Source: a virus (Duplodnaviria; Heunggongvirae; Uroviricota; Caudoviricetes). From it: a stretch of 39,455 nucleotides of DNA. How positions within the stretch are numbered: the stretch's first letter is position 1; every line of letters starts with the position of its first letter. The stretch lies in the IMG/VR virus record IMGVR_UViG_2526164602_000034; one strand, written 5' to 3'. Below the pieces are notes generated by a model. It was not told the origin of the DNA and ran no database searches. It worked only from the letters and a program-made list of their open reading frames with translations. Position numbers and translations under genes: made by a program. Positions 1,085 to 2,048 of the stretch are shown here, in pieces.

Positions 1085-1822
1085 TCATTCACTCTCTTTC
1101 AAACCAGTTTTAACTGTTTGTGGTTTTGGGTAAGGCTGGACTTTGAATAGCTTTGTGTTGAGGCGTTTTCTGGCCCTCTTGTTCAGAAACCGGATGTAAC
1201 GAAACTGTCGGAACTTATGAACACTGGCTCTGTCAATATTAGCCCTCAGATGTTCACCTCGTTGTCCGCCTCGTTTAATGGCATTCCTGCAAATCTCGTG
1301 ATACCACTCGCCATCAAGTTCATAGAATATTGATTCATGGCTGCCTACATAATCAAAATTGCTTGCCTGATACACGACACCAAGACAGCCACAACGCTCA
1401 TCTGCAAACGACTGAACCCACTGTACCTGCGGATAAAGCTGCCTGATTAGCTTGAGCGCGTAACTGATTGCCCTTGATTCGGAGTTTCTCGGCATACAGT
1501 CATGCAGCCATAGCCGGTTAAGCTCCATATATTCTCGGTTCTGCGTACCCGTTACGACGCGTGCACCACTGTTTGGGTTAAGGGCGTAACCCCATTGCAT
1601 TACGCCAACAAGTTCCCGTTCTGAAAATATGCCCAGATGAAGGTAGGAGTTATTTACGAAACGGTGGCTGTAATGTTTATTGACGATGACCAGTCTGGCC
1701 AGCCAGCAACTTATTGTCTCAACCCGCAACTCACGGGAGCCATAACCAACGATATTGTCGTTATAGCGAATAAGTTCAGGCGTGCTGATGATTCGGGATG
1801 TGACTTGCTTTCTGTTCCCCAC
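1085..1822 (-). CDS. mom: Mom-like DNA modification protein (anti-restriction); start may be downstream of 1822
   Basis: 245-aa ORF at the extreme phage right end, immediately downstream of and overlapping the com homologue, exactly as in Mu; identity assigned by synteny rather than by a remembered motif. Confidence 0.6.
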
Positions 1823-1976
1823 GACAGGATTTCCTTGTGTATGTGGGGTGCTCTGTGGCGCTCGGAGATGTGATTTGATTGAGGGTTTTACAGCGCGGAC
1901 ATTTTACTTCCAGATAACTGAAACTGGCCCGTGCCAGTAGCTTATTGCAGTGTCGGCACCGTATGTTTCGATACAT
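1776..1976 (-). CDS. com: Com zinc-finger translational activator of mom
   Basis: [30 protein letters not shown] matches the Mu Com pattern IRCKNCNKLL...IRCPRCK; ATG at 1976 preceded by GAGGT; 3' end overlaps the mom start. The track ORF starts further upstream at a TTG (2021). Confidence 0.75.
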
Positions 1977-2020
1977 GACCGCATAACCTCCTGCTTTGTT
2001 GTTGATGCCTTTCTCATGCA

Positions 2021-2048
2021 ATCGATCGACAAAAACGATCGATTCGAT
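2021..2048 (-). promoter_or_regulatory. GATC cluster upstream of com-mom, candidate Dam-methylation-sensitive control region
   Basis: ATCGATCGACAAAAACGATCGATTCGAT with GATC at 2024-2027 and 2037-2040, about 50-65 nt upstream of the com ATG; Mu mom is controlled by Dam methylation of upstream GATC sites. Confidence 0.35.

Follow-up and report, generated by a model that had tools for sequence, protein, structure and literature searches.

The closest described relatives of the locus considered here are the com-mom operons of phage Mu and of D108 and SfMu, in which the two genes occupy the right end of the transposable phage genome, com overlaps mom, and mom starts with GUG. Mu virion DNA modified by Mom is resistant to many restriction enzymes. 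According to the current mechanism, the substrate of Mu Mom is double-stranded DNA, in which N6 of adenine receives glycine from Gly-tRNA(Gly); a rearrangement on the base then yields N6-carbamoylmethyl-adenine. An earlier proposal involving acetyl-CoA and iron (PMC7261163) has since been superseded. The regulatory protein Com of Mu binds the sequence CC(N)2-3GAG in a small hairpin, which adjoins a 'translation inhibition structure' with the GUG start of mom in its stem (PMC6483171). The present paper deals with the counterpart of this operon in a stretch of 39,455 nucleotides (IMG/VR virus record IMGVR_UViG_2526164602_000034), hereafter called the window, i.e. the whole stretch of DNA that was analysed.

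The feature is very probably the right-end com-mom operon of an Sp18-type transposable Mu-like prophage, which is inserted in the ureC gene. Judging by its sequence, window 955-39455 represents a transposable, Mu-like prophage of the type known as Sp18 from enterohaemorrhagic Escherichia coli (EHEC), and is nearly identical (99.9%) to Sp18. Prophage Sp18 of E. coli O157:H7 Sakai matches window 953-2600 with 99.9% identity and with the genes in the same order, and prophage matches in other genomes begin at window 953-957. Window 1-956 corresponds to the first 956 nt of ureC and is 100% identical to the ureC gene of O157:H7; the identity ends at 956. The insertion site (ureC in this DNA, sorM in Sakai) is the sole difference from Sp18 of Sakai, and the ureC junction was not found in any complete E. 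coli genome of the collection. Because the prophage right end interrupts ureC, the gene for the urease alpha-subunit is disrupted in this strain. Copies related to Sp18 were found in several hundred complete E. coli genomes, with different flanking genes each time, and com together with its leader is carried by 233 E. coli genomes at many different insertion sites. Such variation of the flanking genes is as expected, since the phage transposes.

Sp18 has been described as an apparently intact Mu-like prophage that is able to transpose (PMC2669165; PMC7430833) and has been listed with other Mu-like phages coding for Mom and its regulators (PMC3299994); its com and mom genes have already been mentioned (PMC3299994; PMC2669165). 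The Sakai annotation labels the two genes (ECs_4997/ECs_4998) 'Com family' and 'DNA modification protein', respectively. It should be noted, therefore, that the com-mom operon of Sp18 is already annotated and cited, and that the prophage is well known.

The two genes and the ribosome-binding site of com are located as follows.

1085-1822, minus strand: mom, an open reading frame (ORF) of 245 aa with a GTG start, encoding the Mom DNA-adenine hypermodification enzyme with a GNAT fold.
1776-1976, minus strand: com, encoding a zinc-ribbon translational activator of 66 aa, with its ATG at 1976 and its 3' end overlapping mom by 47 nt.
1987-1992, minus strand: Shine-Dalgarno sequence (SD) of com, AGGAGG, 10 nt before the ATG, read from the sequence and invariant in the relatives.

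The Mom protein could be aligned with Mu Mom over its whole length, with 80% identity. It matched Pfam PF25680 over the entire profile (positions 1-202 of 202; E 4e-77; 258.9 bits, cut-off 27.1) and PHROG 1384 with E 1.4e-83, while residues 5-233 matched the crystallised Mu enzyme, PDB 8bv8 ('Methylcarbamoylase mom'), with E 4.5e-124. The fold is settled by the 80% identity to the crystallised enzyme. Upstream of the GTG, no further in-frame start codon of mom was found. Mutational studies of Mu Mom have shown the importance of H48, Y49, R101, S114, D139 and Y149 (231-aa numbering; PMC7261163) and of W48, H58, Y59, R111, S124, D149, R151, Y159 and W181 (241-aa numbering; PMC13219725); mutation of these nine residues reduces or abolishes activity (PMC7261163; PMC13219725). 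In alignment A1, all nine are invariant between Mu Mom and Sp18 Mom, where they are W40, H50, Y51, R103, S116, D141, R143, Y151 and W173. A helix-turn-helix (HTH)-like insertion, at about residues 175-209 of Mu Mom, is also required for activity (PMC13219725), and in this region the two proteins align without gaps (A1 columns about 165-200). Mu Mom differs in having 12 C-terminal residues fewer. On account of the 80% identity, we infer that Sp18 Mom carries out the same chemistry as Mu Mom.

The Com protein matched Pfam PF10122, Zn_ribbon_Com, with E 3e-12 (46.1 bits, cut-off 22.9). C7, C10, C26 and C29, its four zinc-binding cysteines, are all conserved in Mu Com, where they have been numbered C6, C9, C26 and C29 (PMC3299994). 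The ATG at 1976 is also the start used by RefSeq for Sakai ECs_4997, and the overlap between com and mom (1776-1822) is 47 nt long, compared with 50 nt in Mu. Overall, Com is 43-46% identical to Mu Com and 60-65% identical to the Com proteins of P2-like phages (Chuche and relatives).

These results bear out the original prediction, which had recognised a com homologue overlapping the start of a 245-aa right-end gene, as in the Mu mom operon, and had proposed that this gene encodes Mom: the overlap is there, and the similarity to Mu Mom (80% identity, Pfam E 4e-77) extends to the conserved residues of the GNAT active site.

The com-mom mRNA carries two elements comparable to those of Mu.

1849-1863, minus strand: predicted Com-binding site in the mRNA, GAGCGCCACAGAGCA, with CC-ACA-GAG (1858-1851), which fits the Mu motif CC(N)2-3GAG.
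1817-1848, minus strand: translation-inhibition hairpin, in which CCCCAC (1848-1843) pairs with GUGGGG (1822-1817).

The 3' arm of the hairpin contains the GUG start of mom, and its loop contains the mom SD, AGGA (1835-1832). The Com-binding motif and the start-codon hairpin are thus shared with Mu, as is Mom itself with all its functional residues. The hairpin is present in the predicted minimum free energy (MFE) folds of Sp18, Mu, the P2-like phage Chuche and a variant in which mom is replaced by a C5-cytosine methyltransferase gene (the dcm variant, see below). In alignment A3 of six com cassettes, GCC-N3-GAGCA, CCCAC and GUGGG are invariant, and the Mu hairpin arms show one compensatory change, C-G to U-A. 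The support for the hairpin comes from this conservation, because the z-scores of single-sequence folding were not significant, as expected for a small hairpin. An Rfam scan of 900-2700 returned two sub-threshold chance matches and no known RNA family.

Upstream of com, two GATC sites are found at 2024-2027 and 2037-2040, i.e. at -51 to -48 and at -64 to -61 from the com ATG. They are part of the first of the following two features.

2020-2044: inverted repeat (9+9) carrying both Dam sites, AATCGATCG-ACAAAAA-CGATCGATT.
2025-2061: OxyR-consensus-like 37-mer covering both GATCs, a predicted methylation-sensitive repressor site, scoring 13/20.

The arrangement CGATCG-N7-CGATCG occurs once in the window, against 0.09 occurrences expected. 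The conservation of the repeat was evaluated on sequences from Sakai, two dcm variants, the mouse strains M18 and M1, the human strain AST46, and IMG/VR contigs. Among the five distinct Sp18-family sequences thus obtained, none of the 25 repeat positions varied, compared with 14 of 56 positions in the flanks (7/32 and 7/24). In addition, the Sp18 pair is homologous to sites 2 and 3 of Mu, with which it has the surroundings ATCAATTAAA...GATCGATT in common. In a promoter and terminator scan the repeat was also flagged as terminator-like on the plus strand, which we regard as incidental.

When the sequences were aligned on the com ATG, the following GATC arrangements were obtained.

Mu: 3 GATC sites, spacing 17 and 14 bp, last GATC to com ATG 74 nt.
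P2-like phage Chuche: 3 GATC sites, spacing 18 and 13 bp, last GATC to com ATG 48 nt.
Sp18 type: 2 GATC sites, spacing 13 bp, last GATC to com ATG 48 nt.

The sites therefore lie 48-64 nt upstream of the com ATG in Sp18 and 74-108 nt upstream of it in Mu. The original prediction had placed the GATC pair within a repeat 50-65 nt upstream of com, closer than in Mu, and had proposed looking for its conservation in related prophages; both the location and the comparison with Mu were correct, and the pair is indeed conserved.

In a Citrobacter braakii prophage, com is likewise preceded by two sites, again 48 nt away, and the three-site version precedes com, also at 48 nt, in Salmonella and in P2-like prophages of E. 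coli. When viral contigs were searched with the GATC dyad, 10 of the 87 matches preceded a com gene by about 48 nt; the others were unrelated and are attributed to chance. A GATC cluster was absent at the recovered com loci of Haemophilus, Pasteurella, Acinetobacter, Marinomonas and Firmicutes (one genome per species), and for this reason the cluster is an enterobacterial rather than a universal feature of com.

A Chuche-type com cassette with a single GATC was observed in L014, a contig labelled Vagococcus sp., at about 1420-1500. The single GATC is consistent with a deletion between repeated GATCGAT units, and since the cassette is of the enterobacterial type, its occurrence in a Vagococcus assembly points to contamination.

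Every position of the window was scored against the 37-bp OxyR consensus ATAGnTnnnAnCTAT-N7-ATAGnTnnnAnCTAT, which has 20 specified positions and was reportedly defined by Toledano et al. in 1994. The match at 2025-2061 scores 13/20, exactly as does the known OxyR region of Mu. Among about 39,400 positions in the window only four reach a score of at least 13, and all are within 2025-2092; in dinucleotide-preserving shuffles of the 115-bp intergenic region, the probability of a maximum of at least 13 was 0.019. The match recurs at -85 from the com ATG in M18, M1, AST46, Citrobacter, Salmonella and Chuche, with scores of 13-15. The best OxyR-consensus match of the window (14/20) is at 2056-2092, overlapping the start codon of a divergent ORF of 154 aa.

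In Mu, too, the GATC cluster upstream of com lies within an OxyR-like site, and Bolker and Kahmann are said to have found in 1989 that OxyR binds the unmethylated GATC region of Mu and that Dam methylation blocks this binding. A site of this kind over the GATC pair, which the original prediction had suggested looking for, is what control of the Mu type predicts, and OxyR may bind there. A comparable arrangement is known from the E. coli agn43 (flu) gene, where GATCs are embedded in an OxyR site, and methylation and repressor binding are mutually exclusive. However, agn43 is a host gene subject to a heritable phase-variation switch and has three GATCs downstream of +1, whereas the Sp18 sites belong to a late function of a phage.

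The promoter region is where Sp18 departs from Mu. The 73 nt between the last GATC and the com ATG of Mu contain a C-activator box, TTATgccccaATAA, a poor -35, a T-rich Pmom spacer and a -10 TAAGAT. In Sp18 there are 47 nt, about 26 bp fewer; the region has two GATCs rather than three, and neither the Mu C box nor the T-rich spacer is present. A Mu-type C box (TTAT-N6-ATAA / ATAACCCC) was not found in 1977-2090. The suspicion voiced in the original prediction, that regulation might not be as in Mu, was therefore reasonable. The C homologue of Sp18 (29231-29656) is only 39% identical to Mu C and, having diverged from it, may recognise a different sequence. A candidate for such a sequence is the motif CCGCAAANCCNGCC, which the presumptive Plys, PI, PP and middle promoters have in common (29213-29226, 21295-21308, 12026-12039 and 29712-29725, minus strand) and for which 16 matches with at most two mismatches were counted, against 6.3 expected. 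It is possibly a Mor/C-type activator or promoter element. This candidate C box of the prophage was not found near com.

In a sigma-70 scan of 950-2700, the com strand of the intergenic region yielded no consensus promoter. A candidate promoter element is the following.

2002-2007, minus strand: candidate -10 hexamer of the putative com-mom promoter, CATCAA, the corresponding hexamer being TATCAT in M18 and L057, and TATCAA in M1 and AST46.

Because the approximately 26 bp that hold the C box in Mu are absent, the core promoter must be adjacent to the GATC pair or overlap with it. With CATCAA, or with any other hexamer that fits into the 47 nt, the GATCs would be at roughly -45 to -19, compared with about -52 to -86 for the Mu sites; the proximal GATC, 48 nt from the com ATG (74 nt in Mu), would overlap or abut the -35 region. 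On the minus strand, hairpins at 2499-2487 and 2277-2248 resemble terminators, which suggests that com and mom have a promoter of their own, rather than being transcribed by read-through.

Because Mom is toxic, its expression is likely to be gated twice. The gate at translation is strongly supported by the sequence: the GUG start and the SD of mom would be locked in the hairpin at 1817-1848 until Com, translated from the same mRNA, binds to the adjacent CC-N3-GAG element (1849-1863) and opens the hairpin, so that mom can be translated. The gate at transcription can be proposed by homology with Mu. The GATC pair of the repeat at 2020-2044, inside the OxyR-like site, would be bound by the host repressor when unmethylated; Dam methylation would prevent the binding and permit transcription.

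Some points weigh against this picture. The OxyR match is just 13/20 and is located in an AT-rich stretch, with a local shuffle P of about 0.02; Com is just 43-46% identical to Mu Com, so that its RNA specificity is only assumed; and the searched literature holds no experiment on this element. Upstream of com there is neither a Mu-type C box nor the late-promoter motif CCGCAAANCCNGCC of the prophage, and an activator is probably needed, because the com strand lacks a consensus sigma-70 promoter.

Given the short distance between the GATC pair and com, methylation could also be imagined to act without OxyR. Dam methylation by itself changes promoter strength at the IS10 transposase promoter, and GATCs located in the -35/spacer region might likewise act directly on RNA polymerase. 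The proximal GATC is separated from the com ATG by only 47 nt, either candidate -10 places the GATCs between about -45 and -19, and GATC sites 2 and 3 of the Chuche cassette are overlapped by TCGATA-17-TATCAT, a reasonable promoter. We nevertheless consider this explanation unlikely, because the conserved 25-bp dyad with about 20 bp upstream of it resembles a protein-binding site, the match at the GATC region scores as well as the real OxyR site of Mu, and the homologous Mu sites, according to what Bolker and Kahmann reportedly showed in 1989, work via OxyR. If a protein binds to the dyad, it might be the phage activator, i.e. the Sp18 C homologue, the GATCs being incidental to its recognition sequence. 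The dyad would be centred near -37 to -40 of the putative promoter, a typical position for an activator; Mu C likewise recognises a dyad, TTAT-N6-ATAA, at about -43, and the divergence of Sp18 C from Mu C would leave room for a new target. Nevertheless, binding by C appears quite improbable, considering that the same GATC arrangement precedes com in P2-like phages, which use Ogr and not C, and that the presumptive Plys, PI and PP of the prophage share a different motif, CCGCAAANCCNGCC, without any such dyad.

Finally, the module might be a decaying remnant, whose promoter has lost the C box by deletion and whose mom gene is no longer expressed in this lineage. The approximately 26 bp missing between the GATCs and com relative to Mu would fit this idea, as would the -10 candidate CATCAA, which is weaker in Sp18 than in its relatives. 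However, both ORFs are intact with all their functional residues, the RNA control elements are intact as well, and the element transposes actively and occupies many insertion sites (PMC7430833). Moreover, the short leader is common to intact com-methyltransferase cassettes, and therefore marks a different lineage rather than a deletion. We regard decay as very improbable, and control by Dam and OxyR, as outlined above, as the preferred explanation of the GATC pair.

With respect to com and its leader, the com-methyltransferase cassettes (the Chuche type and those of E. coli and Salmonella) are closer to Sp18 than Mu is. Their com genes are nearer to Sp18 com than Mu com is, they carry the RNA elements GCC-N3-GAGCAC-CCCCAC...GUGGGG, and the last GATC is likewise 48 nt from the ATG. 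On the other hand, the cargo of such cassettes (Chuche, the Citrobacter/STEC dcm variants, where STEC stands for Shiga toxin-producing E. coli, FluMu and B3) is an N6-adenine or C5-cytosine methyltransferase and not Mom, the Chuche type has three GATCs, and Haemophilus-type com has no GATC cluster. In P2-like phages, Com precedes an N6-adenine methyltransferase gene. Sister prophages of the Sp18 type were also observed in which com, the leader and the start-codon hairpin are nearly identical to those of Sp18, while a C5-cytosine methyltransferase gene takes the place of mom.

L005, 2299-3351: C5-cytosine methyltransferase replacing mom.
L010, 1774-2826: C5-cytosine methyltransferase replacing mom.
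L012, 1556-2707: C5-cytosine methyltransferase replacing mom.

Carriers of the dcm variant include an insert in the Shiga toxin (Stx) phage JNE082796, of the Stx2c type, E. coli 89-3156 and Citrobacter braakii. The cargo ORF of the variant opens with the same GUG-GGG-AAC, and the sequences diverge a few codons later, as at a crossover. Since the replacement of mom by methyltransferases behind com has been documented for FluMu, Pnm1 and B3 (PMC3299994), the swap extends a known pattern and introduces no new principle.

A broader interpretation may be put forward tentatively, although we consider it rather doubtful: com, the hairpin and the GATC/OxyR-type operator could form a portable 'safety catch' of about 300 bp, which recombines at GUG-GGG-AAC with toxic DNA-modification genes (Mom, C5-cytosine or N6-adenine methyltransferase). 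The Sp18 cassette would then derive from the P2-like com-methyltransferase type and not from Mu, and host Dam and OxyR would gate mom at the core promoter independently of C.

Beyond correct annotation, the finding matters little, as the control follows the textbook scheme of Mu. What novelty is left would reside in the apparently compact promoter without a C box and in the likely travelling of com, hairpin and GATC operator as a cassette, and is of modest, specialist interest. The module explains why the DNA of a transposable prophage widespread in STEC should resist restriction. The compact promoter might represent a natural and simpler form of a mom promoter gated by Dam and OxyR, and the fact that the same com cassette drives interchangeable DNA-modification genes may be of interest to phage specialists.

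Outside the operon, the terminus of the prophage itself was located as follows.

955-1040: prophage right end, with the terminal TG at 955/956 and three GC-N-TTTGATAC repeats.

Just inside the terminus, direct repeats ending in TTTGATAC are present at 966-981, 988-1003 and 1023-1038, with spacings of 22 and 35 bp. These repeats probably represent the R sites to which the transposase of the phage binds; in sequence they are distinct from R1-R3 of Mu. An inverted repeat with an 8-bp stem at 1067-1090 overlaps the mom stop codon; it is terminator-like on the plus strand, facing transcription from ureC, and not on the mom strand. In the remainder of the prophage, the ORF at 30708-31082 was considered as a candidate for Mor and was rejected, as it shows no similarity to Mu Mor.

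On the other side of com, the divergent 154-aa ORF (2091-2555, plus strand) starts 114 bp from com and matches phrog_26524, a family of unknown function. It has CxxC...CxxC motifs in its C-terminal part and no obvious SD, and in M18, M1 and AST46 its place is taken by unrelated ORFs. While in Mu gin directly abuts the mom promoter, in Sp18 this ORF and a 3.2-kb block of the Stx-phage type separate gin from com. The block of Stx/lambdoid-prophage type, at 2594-5243 on the minus strand between the invertase gene (5343-5903) and com, encodes a 679-aa SASA/DUF6645 (NanS-p-like) esterase, a DUF1378 protein and a DUF826 protein.

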